Part shown: piece after piece, positions 3,987 through 53,277 of the stretch
Layout of the letters: the number at the start of each line of letters is the position of its first letter
How positions within the stretch are numbered: the first letter of the stretch is position 1
Assembly (NCBI RefSeq): GCF_964204645.1
Contig: NC_134032.1
Span: 3,372,175-3,436,174 of the forward strand
Origin: Tubulanus polymorphus
Taxonomy: Eukaryota; Animalia; Nemertea
Direction of reading: 5' to 3'
DNA: 64,000 nt
Notes under the pieces: generated by a model
Told to the model about the DNA's origin: nothing
The model's database searches: none
Seen by the model: only the letters and a program-made list of their open reading frames with translations
Program-made: the position numbers and the translations under genes

Positions 3987-5375
3987 ATGGTAGATAGTTT
4001 TCCAAAAGCTTTCAAATATAATAAATCAATTAAATATAATATTCCAGCAATAGATTTTAATAAAGATATTACATATAGAAATAAAGTTTTAGATTCATTA
4101 ACTAATTTAGAAATTTATGTTACTGAAACTAATAATTTTAATGCAAAGATGGAAAATATATTTCATGTATATTTAATTAATTTTTAAAAATTGAAAGATG
4201 AAAAACAATGGTTATTAAAATCTAATATGAAGTATTGGCAGAATCAATTAAATTTTGCTGTTTATTGTTCAACAACAGGTTGTGGAATTAGTTGGAATGA
4301 TCATTTGAATAATTCTTAATATAAATTAATTCAAAGTTTATTTAGATTTCATACATACTTTCAAATAAGAATAATATTAAATGAATTAGAGTGCGCTTTA
4401 CCAGGATCTAGGTATTTTAAAGAATTAGATAATGATATTAATTTATCGAAGTTTTATAAAATTTGCAATGAATTTAATATAGATATAAATAATTCTGATT
4501 TTAGAACAAAAATTGGAACAATAAGATCACTTCCTTGCCCTGAAAATGTTGCAGCATATTGTGCACTTCCCATACCATCTAATAGTTTTTATAATATCTA
4601 TAATAATAAATTAGGTTATGGTAAAATAGAAACAAAGGATTTAGAAACATTAAATTTCAATAAATTACCGAAATTTTATGATAATTTAAAACAAGAAAAC
4701 AATAATGGTTGGGTTTATTTTATTTTAGAAAATAGTGAAGGTTTTACTAAATCAGGTATAGAAAGAATAAATCAATCTATTAGAACTTATTTGATATGTA
4801 TTTTAGGTGCACAAGTTGAAACAAGATCACCGATAATTGGAAATTTGAATACATCATTCGATGCGCAGAAACAGTTTAAAGTTTTATTTGAAGATTCAAT
4901 TCATAATGATAAAAATAGATCGATTCCAGAAAACATTATAAGATATCAAAATTATTTAGATAAATCTCATGTAAGACTTAATTATTGTATAGGCCCTAAT
5001 CTATTAATTATTTCTAATGATTTAGTATTAAAGATGGGAAATATAATTGGTTATAATAATCTAATTAAAACTGCAACAATAAATAATTCATTTGGATTGA
5101 ATGATATAAATAAAAAGATTATTACTGCTCCAAAATTAATGGAAGGTGAAAAAAATAGAAAACATATTCAATCAACAGAAACTAAAACTAAGAATATTAG
5201 ATTGCATAATGATTCTAAAATAAAAGATTATAATACATCAGAAAATAATAGAACTGATATTATTCAACATGATATAATTAAACTAAATGATGATAATAAA
5301 TCCCATGAAAATACTAAATTAGCTATAACTTGTATAGGAATTGTAATCGGAGGAATATTAAATTTTAAATTTTAA
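3987..5375 (+). pseudogene. Polinton conserved protein (WQNQLNFAVYC.TTGCG motif) with C-terminal TM, disrupted by stops
   Basis: ORFs 3987..4187 and 4791..5375 lie in one frame separated by premature stops; the minus copy 16945-17289 reads through the first stop. Confidence 0.75.
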
Positions 5376-6031: not shown

Positions 6032-7500
6032 TATGTTTTACAACCACTTTTCGGGGAAAAACGTATTGAAATATTATATTTTGATTCTGTAACAGCTGAC
6101 ACCCCAATATTATTAAAATATAATGATAAAATATTGATAAGAAGACTTTCAGAAATAATTCCAAAACAAAATAAACTTAATATTTCGTATGGTGAAAAAG
6201 AATTGATACAGATAAATGGATTAATGGGTGTTTGGACAAGAAATGGATGGAAAAAGTTGAAGAATATAATTAGACATTAAACAAATAAATTGACAAGAAA
6301 ATTGATAGAGATATAACTAAATTAGGACATGTAGATGTTACTGAAGATCATAGTTTAATTAAACGAAATGGTGATGAAATAAAACCAACTGATACAAAAA
6401 TTGGAGATGAATTATTACATAAAACATTTTTTTCCAAGAATGAATCATATGTCATTTGATGAAATAATTAATAATATTTATAGCATAGAACCAGAAAAAT
6501 TAGAAGAAAAGGAATATTTTATCAAAGGATTTTTTATGGGAGATGGTTCAACAGGTGTGTATAATTATGTTGGTGGCAATAAATATTGTTGGTATTTATG
6601 CAATCAAGATTTGAAATTATTAGAAAGAATACAGAAATTCTGTGAAAAAGTTTATTCGTCACATAAAACATTTAGAATCGTGGACCATATGAAATCATCA
6701 GCAGTTTATAGAATAATCGTGAAAAACCACAAACATATTGCTACAAAATATAATGATGAATTCTATATTCATGCAATAGTGAAAAGTAATACTTCAACAG
6801 AAGAAAATAAGTGCCAGATTATGTATTAAATGCAAAATATAATCTAAGAAAATGGTTCTTCATTGGATTCTATGCTGCAGATGGGCAGAAGAAATATACG
6901 AGATATCCAGTAATAACATTTGCGCAAAAAGGAAAAGTTGCTATATCAGGATTGTATATATAATGTAATTCATTAGGATTTTATATGAATATTGAATTAA
7001 TTAAATACAAACCAAATTGTTTTATTTTAAGGGTTTTTGGGTTCCCATTCATCCAAAAAATACGGACGCCTACATACTAAAAATCAAGACAAATGACATA
7101 ACAAAAACTTAAAAACATTAAGACATCATTTTGATTTTAGCAATTATCCAAAAGATCATGAATTATTTAGCAATGATAATAAGAAATTTCCTGGTACATT
7201 TAAAGATGAATTAGGGGGTGATGAAATGATTGAATTTGTTGGGATAAGAAGTAAAATGTATAGTTATAGAACAAAAGATCATGAAGTAAAAGGAATAACA
7301 AAGCATGTGGTTGATAAACATAGAGAATTTCAAGATTATATAAAGTGTTTATATAATTCAATTGTAATGAAACATAAAATGAATTGTTTAAGATCAGAAG
7401 ATCACGAGATGTACATTAATGAAGGTGAGAAAACTAGCTTAATTCGACGATAAAAGATATATTTTGGATGATGGAATAAAAACATTACCTTATGGTCATC
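6032..7500 (+). pseudogene. polB: pPolB pseudogene containing an intein
   Basis: VLQPLFGEKRIEILYFD (6035-6085), then an insertion, then TDAYILKIKT...HHFDFSNYPKDH...RSKMYSY...KRYILDDG, matching ORF 10..1317. Confidence 0.93.
6086..7061 (+). mobile_element. Intein with LAGLIDADG homing endonuclease in PolB motif C (decayed)
   Basis: Block A SVTADTPILLK right after YFD; VWTRNGWKKLKNIIRH; block B VDVTEDHSL (TEDH 6340-6351); endonuclease motifs KGFFMGDGS (~6524-6550) and VPDYVLN..IGFYAADG (~6862-6885); ends KN then +1 Thr (ACG 7062). Contains stops and frameshifts; block F is missing. Confidence 0.92.
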
Positions 7501-11285: not shown

Positions 11286-11368
11286 CAAATAACAATATCA
11301 TGCTAACAACCTATATCAATGTGTCTTCATTCGGCGTTTCCTTCGAAAACCGATCAGCCAGTCATCTT

Positions 11369-11452
11369 GGACCCAGCTCCACAGCTGTGAGTAAGAGTTA
11401 ACTCTGAGTTAAAATAAAAGAGTAAAATCTTAACTCGGAGACATTGGAACCC
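11369..11452. mobile_element. Palindromic MITE fragment, same family as 23160-23269
   Basis: GGACCCAG.TCCACAG.TGTGAGT..GAGTTAACTCTGAGTT..TCTTAACTCGGA shared with the 23160 copy. Confidence 0.6.
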
Positions 11453-11608
11453 CGAGGGTCCCGGACTCAGTTGCGCAAGTCGATACTTCAGAGAGACTGA
11501 GAGAGGGGTGTTACTACAGAGTCAGATTACAGGGTGCTGAGAGAGCTAGAGAGAGAGAGAGGTTTGTGTTACTGCAGAGTCACTGATTACAGGTCTCTGA
11601 GCTTCAAC

Positions 11609-12688
11609 ATGAATTTTACCACGATCTCTACGACTACTCCGCAGTGTATGAGCCGGTATCCACCAGAACGATGGGATCACGTTTTCAGCTATAAGATTTA
11701 CTTGTACGGATATTTGCCGGCTTCGGCTTTCGGAATGATTCTGAACTCTGTTTCTATTCTGGTATTCACAAAGATCGGTCGCGACACTTATCAAACTATA
11801 ATCATTCTCGCCTGGTTTGATTTACTGTTCCTATTTTCAGTGTTTCTTCTTTATCCACTGCGGATACTAATTATCCATTCAATACAAAATGAATACGTTC
11901 TCGGCCGCTGGGATGACTGGTATTTTGGACACGAGATTATAATTTGGGTTCTACCGCTGTTTTATACGTTTCAAATGGCAAAAAATTGGGCCGTAGTTAT
12001 AATCAGTTTTGAAAGACTTCTGGTTGTCGCGAGTCCGCTGTATTTCAGGCGATTCTGGAACAAAAAACAAATCATTTTTCTGTCGGTTTTAAATGCCTTT
12101 TTTTCCGCCGTTTGTTACTGGCCGTATTATTTTCCACTATACTTACCCGGAAGGACCACAGATCCCTGTTTTGGTCATTTATTTACTATGGGAGCTTTTG
12201 GTGCCAAAACAAGTCAAACAACTTTTGTTTATGGGTCTGACATTGCATTCAACTACGTATCTAATTCCTATATTTTCATGTCTGTTCTTTCACCTTTTAT
12301 TTTTCTGATTGTGATAAATCTAACTTTGTTCGGAATTATGTTATTTAGAAAACTAAATCGAAAGAAACAATGTCACACGGGCGCAGCGGCGCCTGGTGAA
12401 AAATCTACCGAACTCAAAATATTAAAATTGGTTCTTATAATTGTAGCTATATTTTTTACCTGTGAAATTCCCGCATCGCTGGATCGTATGTTGCATTTCG
12501 TCAGTAGGGGGTTGAGATTACCTCACGGTCTTCCCGAGGATGAATTGATGATCATGCGTAAAGTAGGAATTCTGCTCAGTGTTTTAGACTCATCCGTAAA
12601 TTTCTTCGTTTACTGCGCAACAAACGGCGCCTTTAGAAAAAAAGCTAAACGAATTTTATTGATAGATTATTTTTGTGATTCTAAATAG
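11609..12688 (+). CDS. Class A (rhodopsin-like) GPCR, FMRFamide/neuropeptide-receptor-like, single exon
   Basis: Seven hydrophobic segments; N-glycosylation site NFT; LAWFD (TM2), SFERLLVVASPL (TM3), FFTCEIP (TM6), SSVNFFVYC (TM7), helix 8 FRK. Likely ATG at 11609. Confidence 0.9.
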   Translation: MNFTTISTTTPQCMSRYPPERWDHVFSYKIYLYGYLPASAFGMILNSVSILVFTKIGRDTYQTIIILAWFDLLFLFSVFLLYPLRILIIHSIQNEYVLGRWDDWYFGHEIIIWVLPLFYTFQMAKNWAVVIISFERLLVVASPLYFRRFWNKKQIIFLSVLNAFFSAVCYWPYYFPLYLPGRTTDPCFGHLFTMGAFGAKTSQTTFVYGSDIAFNYVSNSYIFMSVLSPFIFLIVINLTLFGIMLFRKLNRKKQCHTGAAAPGEKSTELKILKLVLIIVAIFFTCEIPASLDRMLHFVSRGLRLPHGLPEDELMIMRKVGILLSVLDSSVNFFVYCATNGAFRKKAKRILLIDYFCDSK

Positions 12689-13633: not shown

Positions 13634-14515
13634 CTTTCAACAGGGCATGATAAAGGAAAAAAGTGAAGAGATAGTCAGGTAGGACAATTTTACGGGAGCC
13701 AGTTCCACAGATAGTTACAAATAGTTATAGATAGTTGCAGATAATGATTGATAGTTATTACTTGGACATTGCACGACTCAATGATCGCATGTTCATTTAG
13801 ATTTTATAAAATACATGTGGTCAAAATCAGTTGATTTTCAATGAAATTTGAACCTGATCTAATTTCAACTATCAGTGGAACTGAGTCGAGGAGTTCAGGT
13901 CACAGGCCTCCCTTACAGATACCCCTTGCAACCCTATGGCCCGATGGACAGTGCCCATGGATGGAGCCCAATAACTCATCATTTGAATGTATTTTTGCTT
14001 GTGATAAAATCAATGTTTTTGACGGGTAAAACATAATTTTCAATATTTTGTGAAAGATTTAATTTTCACAGAATATCTACGATATCAATTTTGACGCATC
14101 AAATAAATACCGTTACGTAGTTTAAACAATATCTACAATAGTAAACTTGGTTTTGAAAGTGTATCGAAGATCAGATTTGACGCATCAAAAACGTTAGAGG
14201 AACATTTTGTATGAAGAGTGAACATGCAATGTGTAATTCTCTTCTGGACAGAGAAAAAGATCGATTTCATCGGGAATAGGCCCATTTGAACATCTCAAAT
14301 ATTTCAGCGGAAACAATGCTATACCAAATTTCTAGTGAAAATATCGGCGAATATACCTTATTGACTTCTTTCAAACTATAACATCATCACATTTACTTAT
14401 GTCCTGAAAGGCGAATTCACTGACGGCCGGAGTAATTGGTAAATCAGGGTTTCATAGCAGAGGTCGTGCGGTCGACACACCACTCATCACCACAAGTAAT
14501 TTTCCCCCGTAATAA

Positions 14516-14842
14516 ATGGGAGATAGAAAAGCATTCTAAGCAACAATAAATAACAGAATAAAACCAACAAAAAAACAATTTGAAATAAAAAGGTTAGTCG
14601 ATGTTACAAAAGAAATTGAACACAAAATATTAAAATTAGAAAAGATAAGAACTAAATATGGAGAGAAAGTAACAGCAAATTTAAGTTACTGTAATGTCAG
14701 TACAACGCGAGAATTTAAAGTATTTTTACCTGATAAATGGTTTGCATTGAGTACAGAGGAATTAAAAGATTTAGAAGGATTTAAAATAATTTACCATGGG
14801 ATAAATGAAGACGGGCATCATGATTTAGAAGTTGTTGACTAA
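14516..14842 (+). pseudogene. Paralog of 22719..23045 (small KKL/YG/FLP protein) with an early stop
   Basis: MGDRKAF*ATINNRIKP..TKYGEKV..FKVFLPDKW..GHHDLEVVD. Confidence 0.8.
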
Positions 14843-15280
14843 ATAATTAAGAAATAAAAAAATAAAAAAATGAAAATCAAGAATCCGAATGGACAATTCA
14901 ATTGCTCCGCAAGATAGACAAAAGTAGTGAGATATTCAATTAATTAAAATAAATTTTTTTTTGCTTTTTTTCTAAAATATTAATCCATTTTTTTATTGTG
15001 AATTTTGGAATTTCAGAATTTTTTTCATTTTTAATAGCACTAGTTTCAGAATTATTAAAATCATAAATTTTATTTGATTTCTTATACCAACTACACCCAA
15101 TCAAAATGAATACAATTACAAATCCAGTTGCAAAATATAGATATTTATCAAATATTCTATTATTAGACGGATTAGAAATAACAATATTTTCACCATTTTA
15201 ATTAACATTTTTATTACTTATTTTTTTTCTTTTACAGCTTTTTATATTCCTGTGATTTAATTTCTAATTGCCGAGAGCAT

Positions 15281-15872
15281 TCAATTTGTTTCTGAGTTCT
15301 CGGTTTTTTCTTCACAGTTAATTCTTTCACCTCTTCCACTTCTCTCATTTATTCTAGAAAAATTTTTACTTTCAATATTTGAAAATGTTATAACTCCAGT
15401 TGTTAATAGCGTCATAAATCCATCTAATTGAAATGATAAATATCCAATCCATTTATTTAATTCGGTCATAACTAAATAATCATTTTTTAAATCGGAATAT
15501 AATCTATTTTCAATAATTACATAATTTACTATAACCTTTTACTACATTTTCTGATATCGCATCATTAATTCTAGCTATTCTCGCAGTTTCATAAATCTTA
15601 AATAATTTAATAATTTCATCTGATTTCATTGTATCTAATTCATTATAAGTTAAATTTTTACTAATAAAACTTTTACATTTTCCAGATGCTATTATCATTT
15701 CTAATTGATGTTTGCAATAAAGATAATATTCATAATTATTGTTTGTAGTAATATCATTTAAAGCACCATTATTATCTGACGCTAATTTTGTTTCTGCTAT
15801 ACCTAAATCATCCAAAGTTTTTTCAATTGGAACATCACTACTTTTAGATTTTATTTTCTTTTCACCTCCCAT
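15281..15872 (-). pseudogene. Polinton hypothetical protein, paralog of 20772-21374
   Basis: ORFs 15510..15872 and 15281..15469 match 21009..21374. Confidence 0.75.
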
Positions 15873-16094
15873 TTATATAAGAAACAAATTACTTGTGTTG
15901 TTGCAACTAGAATTCAACTACAATTTAACTAGAATGTAACTAAAAATATACTAGATTAACAAGCTATTTGAAATATTGTTGTTTTTATTCATTTTGTGTT
16001 GAATTTTATTAGATTTTTGTTTCAACTACCAATAACTAGAATTCAACTAGAATGTAACTAAAAATATACTAGATTAACAAGTTAGTTGAGTTTA

Positions 16095-16701
16095 AATAAA
16101 TTCATATTTAAATGGGGGTTGTAATCGAAATAGAAATTTTTATCTTTAATTATTTTTCAATTTATCCATATATTCATTATGTAAATCATTTGGAATTATA
16201 TCATTTTCCTCAAGTGCATTTTTCATTGATTTTCTATCTTTATTGTTGAATAATACTATAAATCTAGTGTTTTCTCTAAAATCTTTAACAATTGAATTAT
16301 ATTTTTGATTTAAAACCCATGTTGTTATCCCAAAATGTCTCCCAGAGAAAAATAAAATAACATAACTCACTCTCTCTAACTTTTGAAGCATGTAAATTAG
16401 CACAATCATCTATAATGAATAATGTATTTGATCCTTTATAAATATAAATTGCTATTTTGATACAATAATCTAAATTTTCTTTAACTGTTTTAGGATTTAA
16501 TACAATAAATTTATCATTTCTAGTTATATTTCTATCATAAGTTTGATTAAATTCATACGTTGGACAAAATAATACTATATTATCAAAATAGTTTTTATAA
16601 ATAGTTTCTAATAAATTTGATATAAAATAAGTTTTTCCACAATTTGTTACACCAGAAATAAACATATTATGAGGCTCAAATATAAATAATTCCTTATTCA
16701 T
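16095..16701 (-). pseudogene. Genome-packaging ATPase (A32/FtsK-like), frameshifted
   Basis: Walker A SGVTNCGKT, Walker B LFIIDD, SGRHFGIT..LNQKY..RENTR. Confidence 0.88.
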
Positions 16702-17309
16702 TTATATTTTTTAAATTTACTTGATAATATCCATTCATTAAATTTATCTAGCCATCCAACCCATTTTACTAAATCTTCTAATTTATAGACATATGGTTTT
16801 GTTGTCATTACCTTTTTTATTTTATACATTTCTCTAGTAAAATTACGATCCTATCCTTTATCAAATATCTTTTTATGGTGGTTCCAAAAAAGTGCTTCCC
16901 GAGGCGTGATCTCCGCCACGACCCGGTGCAGTGAGGGAGGGAGGAATTAATTTATATTTAGAATTATTAAAATGTTCATTCCAACTAACTCCACATCCTG
17001 TTGTTGCACAATAAACAGCAAAATTTAATTGGTTCTGCCAATACTTCATATTAGATTTTAATAACCATTGTTTTTCATCTTTCAATTTTTTTAAATTAAT
17101 TGAATATACATGAAATATATTTTCCATCTTTGCATTAAAATTATTAGTTTCAGTAACATAAATATCTAAATTAATTAATGAATTTAAAACTTCATTTCTA
17201 TATGAAATATTTTTATTAAAATCTATTGCAGGAATATTATATTTAATTGATTTATTATATTGAAAAGCTTTTGGAAAACTATCTACCATTTATATAATAA
17301 AACAATTAA

Positions 17310-17738
17310 TAATTTATTAATTCTTTTTATAATTTATCCTGTTCTTCAACTGTTATATTACCATCTAAACTTATTATATAATCTAATGTATTTTTTAATT
17401 TATTAATTTCTATTATATTTATTTTTTTCATTATTACTTTTTATTACTTTAATTTTGAACTTGTGCCGGTTAAATACACTTGAACTTAAACCTAAAGCTC
17501 CAATTGAGATAGCTAAAGGTGTTAATGGTGAGAATAACGCAATAAATGTTATTACAGTACTTATTGTAACTGAACCACTAATAATAAAATAATATATAAT
17601 TTTACTTTTTAAATATTTTTTCTTTTTTATCTTTAAATCACTTTCAAATCCTAATATTTGTTTTTCCAAATATAATTTTAATTTAGTTTTATTAATATTA
17701 TGAGGAATAATATCAATATTGTGAACTTTATCAACCAT
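17310..17738 (-). pseudogene. Paralog of the 3536..3970 2-TM gene
   Basis: MVDKVHNIDIIPH..SKIIYYFIISGSVTIS; frameshifted near the 3' end. Confidence 0.8.
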
Positions 17739-17799
17739 TTAATTAGAAAATAAATTACTAATTAGTAAATTTATAAGCAACAAATAATACAATAACTGA

Positions 17800-18700
17800 A
17801 ATAATATGATATTTCAAGGCATTCAATCGGAAAACCATAATAAATTAAGATCAGGAGCTAATGACGCAATAGTAACTCGTGCCTACAGATAATTTGATTG
17901 AAAAGATTTATGGAAGCAAATATAAAATTCCATTAGACTTTGAATTGATAAATAATAATGCACCTTTATATAAATATGTAATTCAAGAAGATATTATATT
18001 TGAGATAAAATTTGCTCCTGTAAATGGAATTGTATTATCTAGCGTTGTTAAAGATATGGGTTATAAATTATCGAATATATGTATAGAATATGACACAGTA
18101 ACTAATGAAAATATTGCTAGCACAATTCAAACTCAATACAATCAAGGATTTTCATTATTATATGATTATATTGATAAATTTAAAACTGTAACTATTAATG
18201 CAAATGATGAAATAATTAATGAGAACATTAACTTCCCAAGAAGATCTATTAAAGGTATATTAATATTTTTTTACCATTGCAACATATTCTAATGGCGCAA
18301 TAAAGGTTGATAATTATTATAATCCTGAAATAACAAAAGTAGAAATAACTATCGAAGGAATAGCAAATAAAATATTTTGTCAAGGAATGAGAATGATAGA
18401 TCAGTGGCCAGAAATTGGAAAACATTTTATGAATGAAAAAGTAAAATCATTTGAAAATTGTAATATTAATCAAATTGTTTATTATACCGGCAATAAATAC
18501 GCACTATGGTTAGATTTTAGAACAACAGAGGATAATTCATTACATGGTTCTGGGAAAAAACTACAAAATACAAAAGATGGAATACAATTATTCATGACAA
18601 AGAAAAGAGGAGACAAAAATTTCAAAATGCACATTTATGTTATATCTGACGCACAATTAAATATTGTAAATTCACAATTAGATAGTATTCAATATTATAA
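17800..18700 (+). pseudogene. Major capsid protein (double jelly-roll, hexon-like), C-terminal part, frameshifted
   Basis: YKIPLDF, NENINFPRRSIKGILIFF, FYNPEITKVEITIEG, YALWLDFRT.EDNSLHGSG, DGIQL motifs. Confidence 0.82.
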
Positions 18701-18728
18701 ATATAAAGTTAAAATTAAGGATATATAA

Positions 18729-19855
18729 ATGGGTGGTAAAAAAACTCCTAATACTAAAGAACAATATTTAAGAAATTTATATTACAACCCTGAGAGTTCG
18801 GTTGCTTATTCTACTACCAAAAATATATGGCGTCAAATAAAACAAGATAAATTAGATAAGATAATCCCACAAAATTTAGTTAAATATAAAGATATAAATG
18901 AATTTATGTTAGAACAATCAACATATACAACACATAAAAAATTGTTAGAAAATATAAAACTCGTAAAACTATGGCAAGTTATGTAGGTCAACAGTGGCAA
19001 GGAGATTTAATTGATATGAAAAATGTTAAGAAAGATAATGATGATTATTGGTGGATATTGAATATGATTGATATTTTTAGTCGTTATGTATGGAGCTTCC
19101 CACTTTATAGAAAAGATGCTGTACAAAAATCAAATGTTTTAAGAAAATTTCTTTCGGATGATAAACTAAAACCAGAAAAAATACAGTTTGATGATGGAAA
19201 AGAATTTGATAATTCACTTGTTCATGAGCTCTTAGATAATCATTATATTAAATATTTTTCAACAAAATCGGATAAAAAAGCAGCAGTTGTTGAACGATTT
19301 AATAGAACATTAAGAACAAGAATGTGGAAATATTTTACAGCAAATAATACTTTTAAATGGATTGATGTTTTACCAAAATTGATAGAAGGATACAATAATT
19401 CTTATCATTCTTCTATTGGAATGAAACCTATTGATGCTAGAAAACCTGAAAATGCTGAAATTGTTTGGAAAAATTTATACGGAGCATTTCTTGTAGATGA
19501 TTTTGGTGAACCTAAATTTAAAGTTGGTCAAAATATTAGAATTTCTAAGTTTAAAAAGATATTTGATAAAGGATACGATCGAAATTTTACTAGAGAAATA
19601 TATAAAATAAAAAAGGTAATAACAACAAAACCATATGTCTATAAATTAGAAGATTTAGATGGTGAAGAAGTTGATGGCTACTTTTACGAAGAAGAATTAA
19701 GATTAACTACAGAAAATCGAGAACAAGAATATAAAATTGAAAAAGTATTAAAAACAAAAACTATTAAAAGAAAAAAATATTCTTTAGTAAAATGGGTTGG
19801 ATGGCCAGATAAATTCAATGAATGGATATTATCAAGTAAAATTAAAAATATATAA
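18729..19855 (+). pseudogene. Retroviral-type (rve) integrase with C-terminal chromodomain; one frameshift near 18950
   Basis: LYYNPES, WQGDLIDM, IDIFSRY, QFDDGKEF, VERFNRT, YNNSYHSSIGMKP; chromodomain YKIEKVL..LVKWVGWPDKFNEWI. Confidence 0.93.
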
Positions 19856-20465
19856 ATGAATAAGGAATTATTTATATTTGAGCCTCATAATATGTTAATT
19901 TCTGGCGTAACAAATTGTGGAAAAACTTATTTTATATTAAATTTATTATAAACTGTTTATAAAAAGTAATTTTGATAATATAGTATTATTTTGTCCACTA
20001 TATGAATTTAATCAAACTTATGATAGAAAAATTACTAGAAATAATAAATTTATTATATTAGATCCTAAAACAGTAAAAGAAAATTTAGATAATTGTATTA
20101 AAATAGCAATAGATATTTATAAAGGATCAAATACATTATTCATTATAGATTATTGTGCAAATTTACATGATTCAAAAATTAGAGAGAGTGAGTTATGTTA
20201 TTTAGCTTTTTCTGGCAGACATTTTGGGATAACAACTTGGGTTTTAAATCAAAAATTTAATTCAATTGTTAAAGACTTCAGAGAAAACATTAGATTTCTA
20301 GTTTTATTCTACAATAAAGATAGAAAATCGATGAAAAATGCACTTGAGGAAAATGATATTATTCCACATGATTTACATAATGAATATATGGATAAGTTGA
20401 AAAATAATAAAAGATCAAAATTACTATTTAGATTACAACACCTATTTAAATATGAATTTATTTAA
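19856..20465 (+). pseudogene. Packaging ATPase pseudogene
   Basis: SGVTNCGKT Walker A; homologous to 16095-16701; stops and frameshift. Confidence 0.88.
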
Positions 20466-20469
20466 ATTC

Positions 20470-20750
20470 AACTGGCTTGTTAATCTAGTTGAATTCTAGT
20501 AACATTCTAGTTGAATTCTAGTTATTGGTATTTGAAACAAAAATCAAATAAAATTCAACAATATTTTAACTAGCTTGTTAATCTAGTATATTTTTAGTTA
20601 CATTCTAGTTGAATTCTAGTTATTAGTAGTTGAAACAAAAATCAAATAAAATTCAACAAGAAATAAATAAAAACAACAATATTTCAGCTAGCTTCTTAAT
20701 CTAGTTGAATTCTAGTTACATTCTAGTTAAATTCTAGTTGCAACATCACA
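20470..20750. repeat. Intergenic repeats rich in TTCTAGTTGAATTCTAG / CTTGTTAATCTAG
   Basis: Three degenerate units; inverted copy at ~15890-16090; related motif at 52260-52330. Confidence 0.7.
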
Positions 20751-20771
20751 ACTAATTTTTTTGTTATATAA

Positions 20772-21374
20772 ATGAGAGGTGAAAAGAAAATAAAATCTAA
20801 AAATGGTGATGTTCCAATTGAAAAAACTTTAGATGAACTTTAGACAGAAAACAAATTAATTCCAGATGATGGTGCTTTAAATAATGTTACAACAAATAAT
20901 AATTATGAATATTATCTTTATTGTAAACATCAATTAGAAATATTAATAGCATCTGGAAAATGTAAAAATTTTATCGGTAAAAATTTAACTTAAAATGAAT
21001 TAGATACAATGAAATCAGATGAAATTATTAGATTATTTAAGATTTATGAAACCGCGAGAACCGCTAGAATTAATGACGCGATATCAGAAAATGTAGTAGA
21101 AGGTTATAGTAAATTATGTAATTATATACTACCAATTGAAGATGAAAATAGATTATATTCCGATTTAAAAAATGATTATTTAGTTATGACTGAATTAAAT
21201 AAATGGATTGGATATTTATCATTTCAATTAGGTGGATTTATGACATTATTATCAACTGGGGTTATAACATTTTCAAATATTGAAAGTAAAAATATTTCTA
21301 TAATAAATGAACAAGGTGGAAGAAGTGAAGGAATTAACAGTGAAGAAAAAACCGAGAACTCAGAAACAAATTGA
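20772..21374 (+). pseudogene. Polinton hypothetical protein with premature stops
   Basis: Homologous to 15281-15872(-). Confidence 0.75.
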
Positions 21375-21750
21375 ATGGTCTCGGCAATTGGGAATTAAAT
21401 CAAAAGAATATAAAAAAGCTGTAAAAGAAAAAAATAAGTAATAAAAATGTTAATAAAAATGGTGAAAATATTGTTATTTATACTCCTTCTAATGATAGAA
21501 TATTTGATAAATGTCTATATTTTACAGTTGGATTTGTAATTGTATTCATTTTGATTGGGCGTAAAATCAAATAAAATTCATGATATTAATAATTCTGAAA
21601 CAACTGCTATCAAAAATGAAAATACTTCTGAAATTCCAAAATTGATAATAAAAAAATGGATTAATATTTTAGAAAAAAAAAAAAAAAAAATAATTGAATA
21701 TCTCACTACTTTTGTCTATCTATGCGGAGCAATTAAATTGTCGAGATAAG
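21375..21750 (+). pseudogene. Small Polinton TM protein, decayed
   Basis: LYFTVGFVIVFILIG hydrophobic stretch; inverted copy at ~14900-15280. Confidence 0.5.
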
Positions 21751-22150
21751 TCATTTCGGATTCTAGATATTCACTATTTTTATTAATCTATTTTGTTTTT
21801 TAATTTGAAGTTTTTACTTGAATATTGTATTACAGTCGTTTCTTATTATTAGTTTTTTCTTAAATTGAAAGATAGTATCACTGGGCGTGATGCTAAATGA
21901 ATATTTGAATTTGAATTTGAATTTGTTAATCAATTAACATGGTAATTGATTACTAATTTGATTAAAAATTATATCATAATTAAGTTAAAAATCCATAATT
22001 CATTTATCAGTTTTCATTCCTATATTCTTTTCATTCAGAATAATTTATAATTTCAAATTTCACATATTTCTTTAGTAAACACCATACCAGCAACATTTAC
22101 TTAGGTGTTTTAGCTAAGTATATAAGGCAATTCATTCAACCACTGGAGTG

Positions 22151-22438
22151 CCGCCGGGCTTGGCTTGCAGGGGCATTTCGAAAATGCACCTTTGTCCACC
22201 CTCCGTGGTTCTCCTTCAGTTTCGACTTTCGATCCTCCTTTCGGGGGTAAGGGGTTGATAGGATATGCATTAGGCGCCTTTAATATAATGTGTTTCCTGT
22301 CAACCATTGAAGGAGAATTGGTGAGGTGTGGGTCACAGGGGTGTAAGTAGAAATGCTTGGGGATAGGTATCTCGTGGCGCCTCTCAATAACGGGATGCTT
22401 ATCCCCTAAAAACTCTGCGAGTCAAGTCGGGTGGTTTT
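22151..22438 (+). ncRNA. Candidate highly structured ~285-nt ncRNA within the Polinton terminal region
   Basis: Long helices with many G-U and no A-C pairs on the + strand; TATATAA at 22119-22125; TTTT at 22435-22438; two GGCGCC loops (see findings). Confidence 0.68.
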
Positions 22439-22718
22439 GCTAAAACTTACCTTAAAAACATTGAAATATTCCTTTTAATCACGAGAAAGAATGTATCCTC
22501 CTGTCCTGTATGTGGGTTGTATGTACTGCGTGCTTATTATATAACTGCTAGCTATCCAATATAACAACAACGTTGAATTGCAACACCTGTTTGATCGATC
22601 AATATTCAAATGAAGCACTATCTTATGATAACATGTAACAGATGTTTGGCTGTATGATTGTAGTTGTTTGTAAAACGACTCAGGTCATTTTTAGATATTC
22701 ATTATTTTTATTTTTTAT

Positions 22719-23045
22719 TTAATCAACAATTTCTAAATCATGATGACCGTCTTCATTTTTTCCATGATAGATTATTTTAAATCCTTCTAAATCTTTTAAT
22801 TCCTCTGTACTCAATGAAACCCATTTATCGGGTAGAAATACTTTAAATTCTCGCGATGTACTAACATTACAGTAACTTAAATTCGCTGATACTTTCTCTC
22901 CATATTTAGTTTTTATCTTTTCTAATTTCAATATTTTATGTTCAATTTCTTTTGTAACATCAACTAACTTTTTTATTTCAAATTGTTTTCTTGCTGGTTT
23001 TATTCTGTTATTTATTGTTGTTAAGAATGCTTTTCTATCTCCCAT
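22719..23045 (-). CDS. Terminal small Polinton protein, homolog of 1347..1700
   Basis: Intact ORF, TAAATG start; IKKL..TKYGEKV..FLPDKW..YHGKNEDGHHDLE. Confidence 0.78.
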   Translation of the reverse strand: MGDRKAFLTTINNRIKPARKQFEIKKLVDVTKEIEHKILKLEKIKTKYGEKVSANLSYCNVSTSREFKVFLPDKWVSLSTEELKDLEGFKIIYHGKNEDGHHDLEIVD

Positions 23046-23159
23046 TTATAAGGAAAAAAAATTACTTGTGGTGATGAGTGGTGTCTAGTACTCTAGTACT
23101 CTGGTACGAAACCCACATCTTCCAATTACTAATGCTTTGTCGAAATCCACCGTTGAACA

Positions 23160-23269
23160 GGACCCAGTTCCACAGTTGTGAGTTATAGTTAGCTCTGAGT
23201 TAAAGTTAGTTCATTTTCAATGAGTTAACTCAGAGTTGAATCTTAACTCGGAACTGTGGAACTGGACCC
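23160..23269. mobile_element. Palindromic MITE
   Basis: CCAGTTCCACAGTT...AACTGTGGAACTGG inverted ends plus internal GAGTT/AACTC symmetry. Confidence 0.7.
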
Positions 23270-49403: not shown

Positions 49404-50639
49404 GAGATGTATACTACAGCAATTATGAGATATATATATACAATCCAGAGACAAAGAGACTGAATTCAAGTAATCAGAGATGATACAAACTATGGAAAAT
49501 TAACGTAGAAACAGTTAAACGCTAAAATGGATTAAAGGGAAGCAAACCAAAAGGTAATTATAAACAACAATAGTGAGTATAATTATAAATTGAAACTTGA
49601 CATCAGTAGTAAAGAGACAAACTTAGGGGCAGTTGAATTAAAACAAAGGTGATTACAAGTTAAGAGACTAAAATTAATGAGTGACAAATAACAAAGGATC
49701 AAAGGGGAAATCAAGTGTTGAGTTTAACCAGTTTACAGAGGAATTTTGATATTTTGATATTTGAAGTTTATTATGGGGTGAAAAATCATTGTTAAGATTT
49801 ACAACGTTGTTCGAATTTTCAATTATCAATGCAGATTCCAAAATATGTCTTTTAGTTTTATCGTTGCAAGGGTAAAATCAATTCATCATTAGCGAAATCA
49901 AAATTGTGTGAGTTCTGAAATACATGACTAGCAACTCCGCCTTCAGGTTTAAAGTTTTTTACATCTAACTTGTGCTCTTTTAAGCGTTGGTTAAGGTTCC
50001 GACCTGTTTCTCCTATATATACTTTGTCGCAAACTTTACAAGGTATTTTATAAATTTCACAGTTGAGGGATTCGGTTTTAGGTTTGTTATTAATCAATAT
50101 GAGTAATAGGGGTTTAGTTGTTCTAGGCTAAAGGTCGAACGTAGAGCTCATTAAAAAACAAATATTAAAAGTAATTTAAAACTATAATATATTTTCATAG
50201 CCGTGTGCATTTTATATTATAACTAGATATTTATTCTAAGATATTAATAATTTAAATTTTAAAAGCATATTGTATTAAATCAATTGGTCGCTCCGCTTCG
50301 GTACCGCTCCGCTCCGCGACCAATTGATTTATTTACAATACACAAATTCATATAATCAAATATATTCAAATAATAATAAATATTCTATTATTTAACTAAA
50401 ATACACACGGCTATGAAAATATATTATAGTTTTAAATTACTTTTAATATTTGTTTTTAATGAACTCGACCATTCAACCTTTAACCTAGAACAACTAAACC
50501 CCTATTACTCTTAAAATATTCATTTATATGAATAACATATAAATTGATAGATTATTCAATATAAAAGTAACGAATAATTAACGAGCTCTTATAGAATAGA
50601 TATATAGATATATTTTAAACATATTTCAATATTTATATT

Positions 50640-50905
50640 TGTATGAGTTAGATTTTTAAACATAAAAAATGTGGGTAAAGTGTGAGTGAAATAATTCATA
50701 TTTAAATCATTGAATATTTATATTTATATGTGTTAAATTCTTCTTTTTAAACATAAAAAGTGTGAGTAAAGTGTGAGTGAAATAATTCATATTTAAAACA
50801 GTGAATATTTATATTTATATGTGTTAGATTCTTATTTTTGAACATAAAAAGTGTGAGTAAAGTGTGAGTGAAATAATTCATATTTAAAACATTGAATATT
50901 TATAT
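50640..50905 (+). repeat. ~89-bp tandem repeat (3 copies) upstream of the cargo ORF
   Basis: AAACATAAAAAGTGTGAGTAAAGTGTGAGTGAAATAATTCATATTTAAA repeated. Confidence 0.8.
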
Positions 50906-50909
50906 TTGA

Positions 50910-51575
50910 ATGAGTTTTAATAAAAATTTTGTTATAAAAATGAAGAAAGAAGAAGAACCCAACTTTAAAATCGAAATCAATCAAACTAATAAATCATTTT
51001 CACAGTTTAACATTAGAAATTATATTTCAGCAACAAATTTTGTGTCCGCCAGACATTATAAAATCGATAACATAACTATGATTAATCAAATATTATCAAA
51101 TGAAATTTATTTAATTACTGAACTAGTAGATACTTTTGATAATGGCGTTAAAAATCCTAAATTGTTCAATACAGTTTTAAATTTTAAAGGAACTTCAGAT
51201 GAAAACATAATAAATATTCTTAAAACTCCTTTCAATGAAAGAAATGATGATATAATACTTTCTAAAGATTACAATGATTTGATTAACTTAAGAATTGAAA
51301 AAAGACAATTATATTTCAATTATGATAATAAACAAACTATCTATAATGAAAATTCATCAAATATTGGTATTCAATGTGAATTAGATAATGAAAAATCATA
51401 TATATCAGATATTGCAGTTCAATGTTATTTAGATGTTGAATTTAGAAAATTCAATCCTATTGAAAAAGTGTATTGTTATTGCGGCGGCAAATATTTAAGA
51501 TCACATAAATCAAAACATTATCAAACAGTTAAACATATCAATTATGAAAAGAATAATAAATATATATTGAAATAA
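50910..51575 (+). CDS. Mini-Polinton cargo protein with C-terminal CxC..H..H zinc finger
   Basis: Intact 221-aa ORF ending KVYCYCGGKYLRSHKSKHYQTVKH. Confidence 0.65.
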   Translation: MSFNKNFVIKMKKEEEPNFKIEINQTNKSFSQFNIRNYISATNFVSARHYKIDNITMINQILSNEIYLITELVDTFDNGVKNPKLFNTVLNFKGTSDENIINILKTPFNERNDDIILSKDYNDLINLRIEKRQLYFNYDNKQTIYNENSSNIGIQCELDNEKSYISDIAVQCYLDVEFRKFNPIEKVYCYCGGKYLRSHKSKHYQTVKHINYEKNNKYILK

Positions 51576-51733
51576 GAGTATGTTTCAAATATAAAGTAGT
51601 TAAAGCATCGAGAAATTAGTTTAATAAATAACTGTTAGGTAGTAAGTTTAATTGTAATTTGATTTGAAACATATAAAACTTATTTCTAAAATATTAAATA
51701 TTTATCAATTTAATAATTTTTTTTCTTAAATAA

Positions 51734-51952
51734 ATGGATGGTTTCATTCCAACTGGGAAAAGTGATTTGAAGCATTATCTTGTAGCAGGAGGATTAATAT
51801 TGGCAGCATTATATTTTTACTATGAGAATTTTTCAAAAGATTTGATGAATGAAAATAATAAATTAAGTAAAAAATTAAAGAAGTTAAAAGGAAACAATCA
51901 CAGAAATAAAAAGAATAAAAAATGTAATTTAGAAAATGATTTAGAGGATTAA
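51734..51952 (+). CDS. Small TM plus basic coiled-coil cargo protein
   Basis: T-tract followed by TAAATAAATG start, as in the Polinton genes; YLVAGGLILAALYFY. Confidence 0.55.
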   Translation: MDGFIPTGKSDLKHYLVAGGLILAALYFYYENFSKDLMNENNKLSKKLKKLKGNNHRNKKNKKCNLENDLED

Positions 51953-53277
51953 AACAGCATCTTTTAATTTCATATATTTTGACTATAAAAATGAGTGAAA
52001 ATATATTAAACTTATTACATCTATATATAAAAATCAACAGAATATTAAATCAATTATTATGCTTACAGGTTTATTTTCATTCTCAGTTTATACTACAAAA
52101 CAGTTGTTAACAATTCTATGATTGCTGTAAAATTAGATACACTGAATTAATAGAAAATATAAATTATATTTCAGATAGATAGAATAATATTAAATGCTGT
52201 GAAGTATGTAATAAAAGATATAAAAATTTAAAGAATTTAAAAACTCATAAATATATTCATGAATTTCTTGTTAAATCTATTTGAATTCTAGTCAATTCTT
52301 GTTAACCAATAGCGTGACTAGAATTCAAATAGAGCGGAGCGGCAGCGAAGCGAAGCGACCAATTGATTTAATACAATATGCTTTTAAAATTTAAATTATT
52401 AATATCTTAGAATAAATATTTAGTTATAATATAAAATGCACACGGCTATGAAAAAATATTATAGTTTCAAATTACTTTTAATATTTGTTTTTTAATGAGC
52501 TCGACCGTTCGACCTTTGGCCTAGAACAACTAAAACCCTATTACTAATATGTTACTAAGTTTATTATTGTATTTAAAGATAAGTTGTTTATTTAGTTACC
52601 GAAGAGAAACTTTAGAATTCTCGAGGAAAGGTACATACGGTACAATGATAGGCTGTTTATCGGTAGCCGACGTCGGAGTTCTAAGGTTCTTATTTCTAAA
52701 ATGGGTAGTACGAGCTGTAAGGAGAGCTTTTTTCAAGATGAAATCGGGTAGGCAAGTTTTTTTAGAGATTGGTTAATATGTTGTATTTCATCGGGCAGAA
52801 ATTAGGGGTCGCAAATTCTCAAAGCGTTTAATATCCGGAGAAGTAAAAGAGAAGTAATGAAGGTAGGATTCAGCGTTGGTAGGTTTCCTATAAACCGCGA
52901 ATTTCAAAAAGGATCCACTGTTAAAAATCAAAACATCCAGAAAAGGTATTTTACTATTAGATTCCCATTCATACGTAAAAGCCAGAGACGGGTAAAGGCA
53001 GTTTAAATATATAAGAAAGTTATCAACATTGAAGTCAGAGGGAACCAAAGCCAGAACATCGTCAACATATCTGAGCCAGATTTTACGGTGAATATCAGTA
53101 TAAAGAGGCAATATTTCAGTATATATCTTAGAAAGAATTTGACGATAATGATTTTGAGAAGTTTGCATTTGAAGAGATGAGTGATGACATAAAAGCTGTT
53201 GCATAGCGCTGTTTCTCTATTATCCTTTGCTGGTAACTAATCTGAGAAACAATTCAATTTTTTCTTTTCTTTTTTAG

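Follow-up and report, generated by a model that had tools for sequence, protein, structure and literature searches.

A candidate Pol III-type structured RNA with twin palindromic loops in a decayed Polinton of Tubulanus polymorphus

Pol III non-coding RNAs are known from a few vertebrate viruses and include the VA RNAs, the EBERs and viral miRNA precursors (PMC4378190, accessible text). VA-I, stem IV of EBER1 and nc886 have wobble-rich helices that bind dsRNA sensors without activating them, and these RNAs are PKR inhibitors (accessible parts of PMC6599070 and PMC4378190). In VA-I, a loop-loop pseudoknot keeps the RNA from activating PKR, as described in the accessible portion of PMC6599070. 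HIV-1 DIS and PEMV2 ATS carry a 6-nt self-complementary palindrome with conserved flanking letters in a single loop of an RNA genome (PMC10484742, accessible text). With respect to PEMV2, the legend of a review gives the letters as GGCGCC (PMC13662761, accessible part), whereas the primary text, as far as accessible, does not contain this string and has UA as the wild-type centre (PMC10484742). Since these sources disagree, identical letters are not claimed here.

Here, we describe a predicted structured RNA in a decayed Polinton, located in a window of 64,000 nucleotides of Tubulanus polymorphus DNA (the whole stretch that was analysed, to which positions refer). Like adenovirus VA RNA I/II as portrayed in the accessible sources (PMC6599070, PMC4378190), it has paired 5′ and 3′ ends, wobble-rich imperfect stems and a U tail, which here take the form of a 22-bp closing stem, 20 G-U pairs and T4. 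A loop-loop tertiary contact, here a predicted one, is a further likeness (PMC6599070, in part), as is the viral origin, the Polinton host element being adenovirus-related. It differs from VA RNA (~160 nt in the accessible text) in its length of 289 nt, its upstream TATA and its four- and three-way junctions, and a predicted 6-bp palindromic kiss takes the place of the 3-bp VA pseudoknot. The candidate may thus work like VA RNA, but it is not a member of the VA family: it has no Rfam match, no strict A/B boxes, and another size and shape. With EBV EBER1/2 and human nc886, as they appear in the accessible parts of PMC4378190 and PMC6599070, it shares a Pol III-type structured RNA with a closing stem and wobble-rich helices; unlike them, it is longer, has twin identical loops and resides in an invertebrate integrated element, and it has no sequence or Rfam likeness to either. 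It resembles HIV-1 DIS and PEMV2 ATS in its loop palindrome, but has two such loops in one small RNA of a DNA element.

The literature searched, at the level of listings of openly available papers, showed no Polinton-encoded structured or Pol III RNA, and the accessible text of the adintovirus paper has neither "noncoding" nor "VA RNA" (PMC8502044). By analogy, the candidate would add copy-level covariation and twin loops to the viral Pol III-type structured RNAs, with a function that we infer. If true, finding such an RNA, structured and covarying, in the Polinton of an invertebrate would extend the viral Pol III strategy to an adenovirus-related group, and would show that selection had acted on the element as a parasite actively working against host RNA defences. 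An abundant discrete RNA, if present, would moreover be a simple marker of the time and place of Polinton activity.

The Polinton element and its copies

A reading made from the letters of the window (the sequence-only reading) had placed the locus in a Polinton, and the integrase, the A32 ATPase, an AGT-type end and the read depth common to RNA and element bear this out. The decayed Polinton stretch covers 14431-23130, and the RNA gene lies between converging ORFs at a distance of 0.7 kb from one end. The element and its surroundings comprise:

1-1317, separate fragment: protein-primed PolB with 4203 relatives; the 14431-23130 copy is thus incomplete
18971..19855, plus strand: Polinton integrase with chromodomain (Pfam rve 3.8e-9, Chromo 1.9e-4)
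19941..20465, plus strand: A32-type packaging ATPase (Pfam Pox_A32 7.3e-5), its start region broken in this copy
21794..22686, no strand assigned: 0.9-kb block with the RNA gene, missing from the paralogous fragment 14431-16087
22719..23045, minus strand: ORF of 108 aa running towards the RNA gene; it shares 29% identity with the ORF that follows PolB (1347-1700) and has 2 unnamed relatives
23122..23130, minus strand: element end, AGTAATTGG on the minus strand, the same as the end at 14431

The AGT-type ends at 14431 and 23130 have no common target-site duplication. Among the ORFs listed, the A32 ATPase region holds no ATG-started frame of at least 60 aa, and a fragment at 17879-18289, which we take to be a putative capsid fragment, matched nothing in Pfam or PDB. 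The integrase is enclosed by two arms in inverted orientation (14431-16875 and 19552-23130, with 84-96% likeness between pieces of them), which are probably two subfamily fragments lying back to back.

Copies of the element were drawn from DNA reads of the same species (set X5, ~12% of the run). At least 42 of these reads skip the 21794..22686 block, compared with a depth of 472-828 on the RNA; depth on the terminal ORF is 701-866 (figures that do not stand for a copy number). Because the depth on the RNA is like that on the terminal ORF and few of the reads in the joints listed skip the block, the RNA belongs as a regular component to a Polinton family with many copies and is no isolated insertion. 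Of the two main subfamilies, one is near-identical to the window, with 1 other letter in 250 nt and 2 in 362 nt. The other, subfamily 2, differs at 31 letters and has 4 gaps over 197 nt; its 5′ third does not align, and its joint 22149 -> 22268 is found in 35 reads. Hairpin A or other arms are deleted in small groups of DNA reads (4-8 each) within 22226-22420, so some copies are decayed.

A 24-nt direct repeat (21761-21784 and 22689-22712) lies on either side of the block, and an 8-nt inverted repeat (22108-22115 / 22439-22446; chance 0.048, borderline) brackets the putative promoter and terminator. These repeats, the copies without the block and the converging ORFs on both sides would fit a cis-acting element at the 3′ end of a neighbouring Polinton mRNA, a host RNA gene that was captured, or an inserted SINE or MITE. 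This group of readings appears quite unlikely. Depth continues into the shared flanks with no place where many molecules start or end, and the loose ends beside the gene, among those listed, are specific rather than random (X5 agreement 0.80-0.98), although a few free copies may exist beyond the loose ends listed. These readings are further disfavoured by the lack of any tRNA or Rfam match and by GC steps at the TATA-defined start and at T4.

The predicted fold and selection on base pairing

The predicted fold of 22150-22438 has a free energy of -153.6 kcal/mol and 108 pairs (49 G-C, 39 A-U and 20 G-U), and its 1x1 mismatches are G.G and U.U, A.C being absent. All seven long helices that had been paired by hand were recovered at the same coordinates, with mean pair probabilities of 0.96-1.00. 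A small hairpin had been described as UUCG-capped; the prediction instead pairs 22234-38 with 22243-47 around a UUUC loop (probability 0.79), with no C(UUCG)G cap. The parts of the RNA are as follows:

22150..22438, plus strand: predicted structured RNA, 289 nt, 50% GC, start +/- ~2 nt (G22148 or G22150)
22150..22172, plus strand: 5′ strand of closing stem P1, pairing with 22413-22435 in the predicted fold
22173..22220, plus strand: 5′ side of the central P2-P4 rod, forming 41 pairs with 22306-22356, probabilities 0.96-1.00
22180..22184, plus strand: GAAAA side of a predicted internal loop, opposite AGUA at 22346-22349
22221..22232, plus strand: tandem TTCGA forming a 4-bp hairpin at the top junction; it resembles a B box without matching the strict pattern and is apparently kept in subfamily 2 (by eye)
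22234..22247, plus strand: optional small hairpin (probability 0.79), apparently missing from subfamily 2, which is ~18 nt shorter there
22253..22305, plus strand: hairpin A, predicted 20-bp stem and 13-nt loop
22359..22406, plus strand: hairpin B, predicted 17-bp stem and 14-nt loop

The GAAAA/AGUA internal loop is in the register of a loop E / sarcin-ricin-like motif; G>T at 22347 in 148 of 767 reads (19%) counts against its strict conservation.

The folding z-score of 22140-22445 is -10.86 on the plus strand and -4.26 on the minus strand, and on neither strand was it equalled by any of 100 shuffles; the comparison of strands that had been proposed as a check thus came out far stronger for plus. 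In addition, 22150-22438 ranks first in folding among 425 tiles of the 64-kb window, and it exceeds by 9 SD the GC trend drawn from 299 Polinton-like tiles.

The claim that the RNA resembles no known family stands, as Rfam gave only chance matches (E 1.9-8.6). SRP, 7SK, RNase P/MRP, vault, Y and telomerase RNA had no Rfam match even at E 10, although a very diverged lophotrochozoan RNA could escape the models; the tandem GAUC and free 3′ hairpin of 7SK and a telomere template are absent from the candidate. Searches for a retrozyme or ribozyme gave 0 hammerhead cores on both strands and no Rfam ribozyme match. The tRNA scan detected no tRNA head at the RNA gene, and Rfam no snRNA in the 64-kb window. 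Exact 21-mer matches in metagenome contigs came to 3 loci (60% GC) whose similarity ended with the seed, and exact 16-mer matches in viral contigs to 12 loci, none of which extends; the neighbouring Polinton proteins, used as queries, found no loci in viral contigs. A PolB search returned only distant elements, 31-45% identical (L004-L006, L019-L022), and a fold scan of six of these (L004-L006, L019-L021) revealed no similar architecture, with a BLAST comparison covering L004-L006. Some observations made in these contigs are recorded here. L021 has two long hairpins at 11290-11520, directly after its distant PolB (37%), with z-scores of -5.9 on plus and -7.1 on minus and no clear strand bias. 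L020 (1-9222, titled Rickettsia sp.) and L021 are contigs filed as bacterial MAGs with a Polinton-type PolB, and are probably misbinned host DNA. The PolB-bearing viral contig L006 holds a long near-perfect inverted repeat at 4560-4900 (-145 and -146 kcal/mol on the two strands), which is DNA-palindrome-like.

The sequence-only reading had ascribed the many G-U pairs to selection on the plus single strand. Because folding programs favour G-U, a strand-neutral inverted-repeat scan was run, in which G.T and A.C are scored alike. Its four best stems contain 12 G.T and 0 A.C (p 0.0005). Lower score cut-offs admit an off-register segment and give G.T:A.C ratios of 16:4 (p 0.012) and 16:5 (p 0.027). 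In five DNA inverted repeats of the window, by comparison, the two kinds are balanced (2:3, 3:2, 9:14, 20:15 and 5:9).

Changes between copies were compared with the window's fold for the 37 differences that fall within the RNA, among the 40 of 69 differences listed; all of this variation stems from two related subfamilies of one species, not from independent lineages. Ten of the 37 lie at unpaired sites, 17 still pair with the window partner and 10 do not. Two of these 10 (out of 27 listed changes at paired sites) are compensated hairpin-A sites, and most others sit opposite the unaligned 5′ third of subfamily 2. The changes at 22317, 22323, 22324 and 22326 do not pair with the window partner, their own partners not being visible in the reads, and 22356 C>A, at a helix end, is an apparent true break of a pair.

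In hairpin B, where both arms align, all 5 of the stem changes listed switch a pair from Watson-Crick to G-U or back, and none leads to A.C (p 0.03). In hairpin A, the four common 3′ changes (22293, 22296, 22300 and 22304; 33-36% of reads) are all compensated, at 22265, 22262, 22258 and 22254, with A-U going to U-A, G-C to A-U, A-U to G-C and G-C to A-U. These partners lie in the part of subfamily 2 that does not align and were read by eye from the loose end preceding 22268 (183 reads); the phase is taken from a depth step of ~275 at 22268, each change occurring in ~240 reads. The probability of these positions coinciding by chance is 0.004. A fifth 5′ change in hairpin A (by eye, subfamily 2) turns G-U into A-U. 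Moreover, the window's U.U mismatch at 22264/22294 becomes an A-U pair with the A found at 22264 in 455 of 455 reads, and the rewritten closing stem of subfamily 2 still pairs, by eye, as shorter interrupted blocks with a bulge. The strand-neutral scan and the pair-keeping changes between copies therefore agree with the claim of selection on the plus strand, and we consider it very likely that the structure is under single-strand selection. A 65-aa minus-strand ORF across the RNA was rejected, read indels there not being multiples of three.

The pairing could instead belong to DNA, as a structure of the single strand during strand-displacement replication or as a decaying DNA palindrome. The plus strand folds well as DNA too (z -7.8, compared with -3.8 for minus), and template switching in DNA hairpins can mimic compensation. 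Template switching would, however, erase G-T pairs, of which 20 remain and toggle, and the DNA repeats of the window are without G.T bias. The TATA/T4 anatomy and the loop-E-like loop would, moreover, have no role in DNA. This explanation is weakened by these points and now looks very improbable.

Putative promoter and terminator

The sequences flanking the predicted RNA are:

22105..22149, plus strand: upstream segment, likely the promoter, common to both RNA subfamilies
22119..22125, plus strand: TATATAA, -31 to -25 from G22150, with no change among the 40 of 69 differences listed
22435..22438, plus strand: T4, the likely Pol III terminator, directly 3′ of the closing stem in both subfamilies

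TATA ~25-31 nt upstream combined with a T-run end is the U6-type (type-3) Pol III geometry. The TATATAA said to lie ~30 nt upstream is present at 22119-22125; the motif is common, with 18 copies on both strands of 14431-23130, and only its spacing is informative. Listed changes affect 2 of the 45 upstream places (22128 and 22138) compared with 31 other letters in 197 in the subfamily-2 contig (Fisher p 0.053). Farther upstream, where a proximal sequence element was considered, 22081-22085 is frequently deleted in reads. The TTTT noted after the closing stem is the sole plus-strand T4 of 22150-22438, at 22435, and GC rises at the TATA-defined start and falls at T4. The A/B-box-like motifs that had also been proposed fail the strict test: strict box A and box B patterns gave 0 matches. 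On sequence grounds, the anatomy suggests an upstream U6-type promoter more than internal A/B boxes, and the predicted RNA is probably an independent Pol III transcript. Like the type-3 Pol III RNAs (U6, 7SK, RNase P/MRP and Y), the candidate has TATA at -31 to -25, a G start and a T-run end, and its length is SRP-like; unlike these RNAs, SRP and vault RNA, it rides in a mobile element and its sequence diverges fast.

The window copy has seven T3 runs and no internal T4 (p ~0.08), and subfamily 2 has a T4 near +25 (by eye). Yeast assays, in the accessible text of PMC9278858, indicate that a T4 beside a stem terminates Pol III with moderate efficiency and that T4 works mainly with adjacent structure. 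By analogy, this behaviour would fit the terminal T4 and may excuse the internal T4 of subfamily 2.

The twin loops and a proposed function

Hairpins A and B share a feature that the sequence-only reading had missed: loops A (22273-22285) and B (22376-22389) both start with GGCGCCU and end with AAUA. Their first six letters are:

22273..22278, plus strand: GGCGCC at the start of loop A, self-complementary, unpaired probability 0.97-1.0, no change among the differences listed
22376..22381, plus strand: GGCGCC at the start of loop B, self-complementary, unpaired probability 0.91-1.0, no change among the differences listed

GGCGCC occurs twice in the 8.7-kb element, in loops A and B only, and 8 times in the 64 kb. 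Six complementary letters were present in 1% of 20,000 draws of random loops, and the shared first 7 and last 4 loop letters have a probability of ~3e-7 for random letters (post hoc). In the predicted fold, the hexamer is exposed and self-complementary in a stable hairpin loop, as in DIS-type kissing-loop RNA. Among the differences listed, both hexamers are unchanged in both subfamilies covering them, which gives no covariation, and their pairing is thus predicted; changes in loops compared with stems (2/27 and 15/74) do not differ significantly (p 0.23). The loops offer a precise and cheap structural test. Judged from the letters, hairpins A and B may have arisen from one hairpin duplication, which would explain the loop likeness, the stems having then drifted and the loops not.

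It is improbable, in our estimate, that the twin loops are repeated sites sponging a host protein or small RNA, with stems that merely present them. The likeness exceeds the palindrome (first 7 and last 4 letters), and the sole common loop-B change among those listed brings loop B closer to loop A, as a sponge would have it; however, a recent hairpin duplication explains the same likeness, and a sponge needs no perfect GC palindrome. Yet less probable is a Drosha/Dicer precursor of small guide RNAs, like the Pol III miRNAs of BLV, foamy virus and MHV68. The predicted 17-22-bp stems and 13-14-nt loops suit such a precursor, and viral Pol III pre-miRNAs exist (PMC4378190, accessible text), but here the arms vary freely between subfamilies and the loops are kept, opposite to what miRNAs usually show, and hairpin A sits on a branched junction with no plain 35-bp stem.

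Stems that keep their shape and not their sequence fit a ligand that reads shape. The reading that we tentatively favour, while holding it somewhat short of probable, is that of a dsRNA decoy in the manner of VA RNA, held shut by kissing of its loops, with a function proposed by analogy. Host TBP-dependent Pol III would start near G22150 and stop at the T4 behind the closing stem. Hairpin A would then fold back from the top junction and kiss hairpin B via the GGCGCC loops; 20 + 17 + 6 pairs roughly equal the 41-pair rod plus its internal loop, and to judge from arm lengths alone the kiss would be possible within one molecule. This clasp would yield a compact body of short imperfect helices, which, as in VA-I, might bind proteins of the PKR, OAS or Dicer type while leaving them inactive, thereby protecting expression of the element. 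Several points count against the decoy. The T4 of subfamily 2 could end Pol III transcription early. An intramolecular kiss needs no identical palindromic loops, and palindromes are better suited to dimers. The total helix of ~100 pairs in the predicted fold is large for a non-activating decoy.

The twin self-complementary loops give more weight to the structural-RNA option that the sequence-only reading had raised, namely an RNA that joins into dimers, rings or chains via its palindromic loops and serves as a packaging or replication-site scaffold in the manner of phi29 pRNA or HIV DIS. Computed duplexes of loop A with A, B with B and A with B all reach -14.1 kcal/mol, and two sticky loops per molecule would permit chains. 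The RNA gene also lies downstream of the packaging ATPase. However, some element copies lack the block, the arm lengths also permit an intramolecular kiss, and we know of no RNA cofactor of A32/FtsK-type motors. According to the accessible text of PMC10484742, 6-nt loop palindromes drive PEMV2 and HIV-1 dimers. On balance, a scaffold of this kind seems unlikely. The same low expectation applies to a two-handed RNA brick whose kissing loops would self-assemble into rings or networks, as a scaffold, a packaging aid or a sensor-trapping condensate, so that animal Polintons would have Pol III RNA machines of their own; no such role for small RNAs of eukaryotic DNA viruses is described in the literature searched.

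A few further features of the window were recorded. A LAGLIDADG-like fragment at 6401-6829 (Pfam E 0.005) lies beside a second PolB remnant at ~7060-7496; the PolB relative P0011 has intein and LAGLIDADG domains, and by sequence likeness some PolBs of this family may hold inteins. Between the Polinton fragments, 11534-12688 is a single-exon host GPCR with one database match, a Tubulanus protein (48%). An element of 2.45 kb at 50097-52550 has 218-nt terminal inverted repeats, an internal 91-nt tandem repeat and a 221-aa ORF without Pfam match. Just outside the Polinton end, a 100-nt DNA palindrome at 23164-23265, with a partial copy at 11364-11413, is likely a host MITE.
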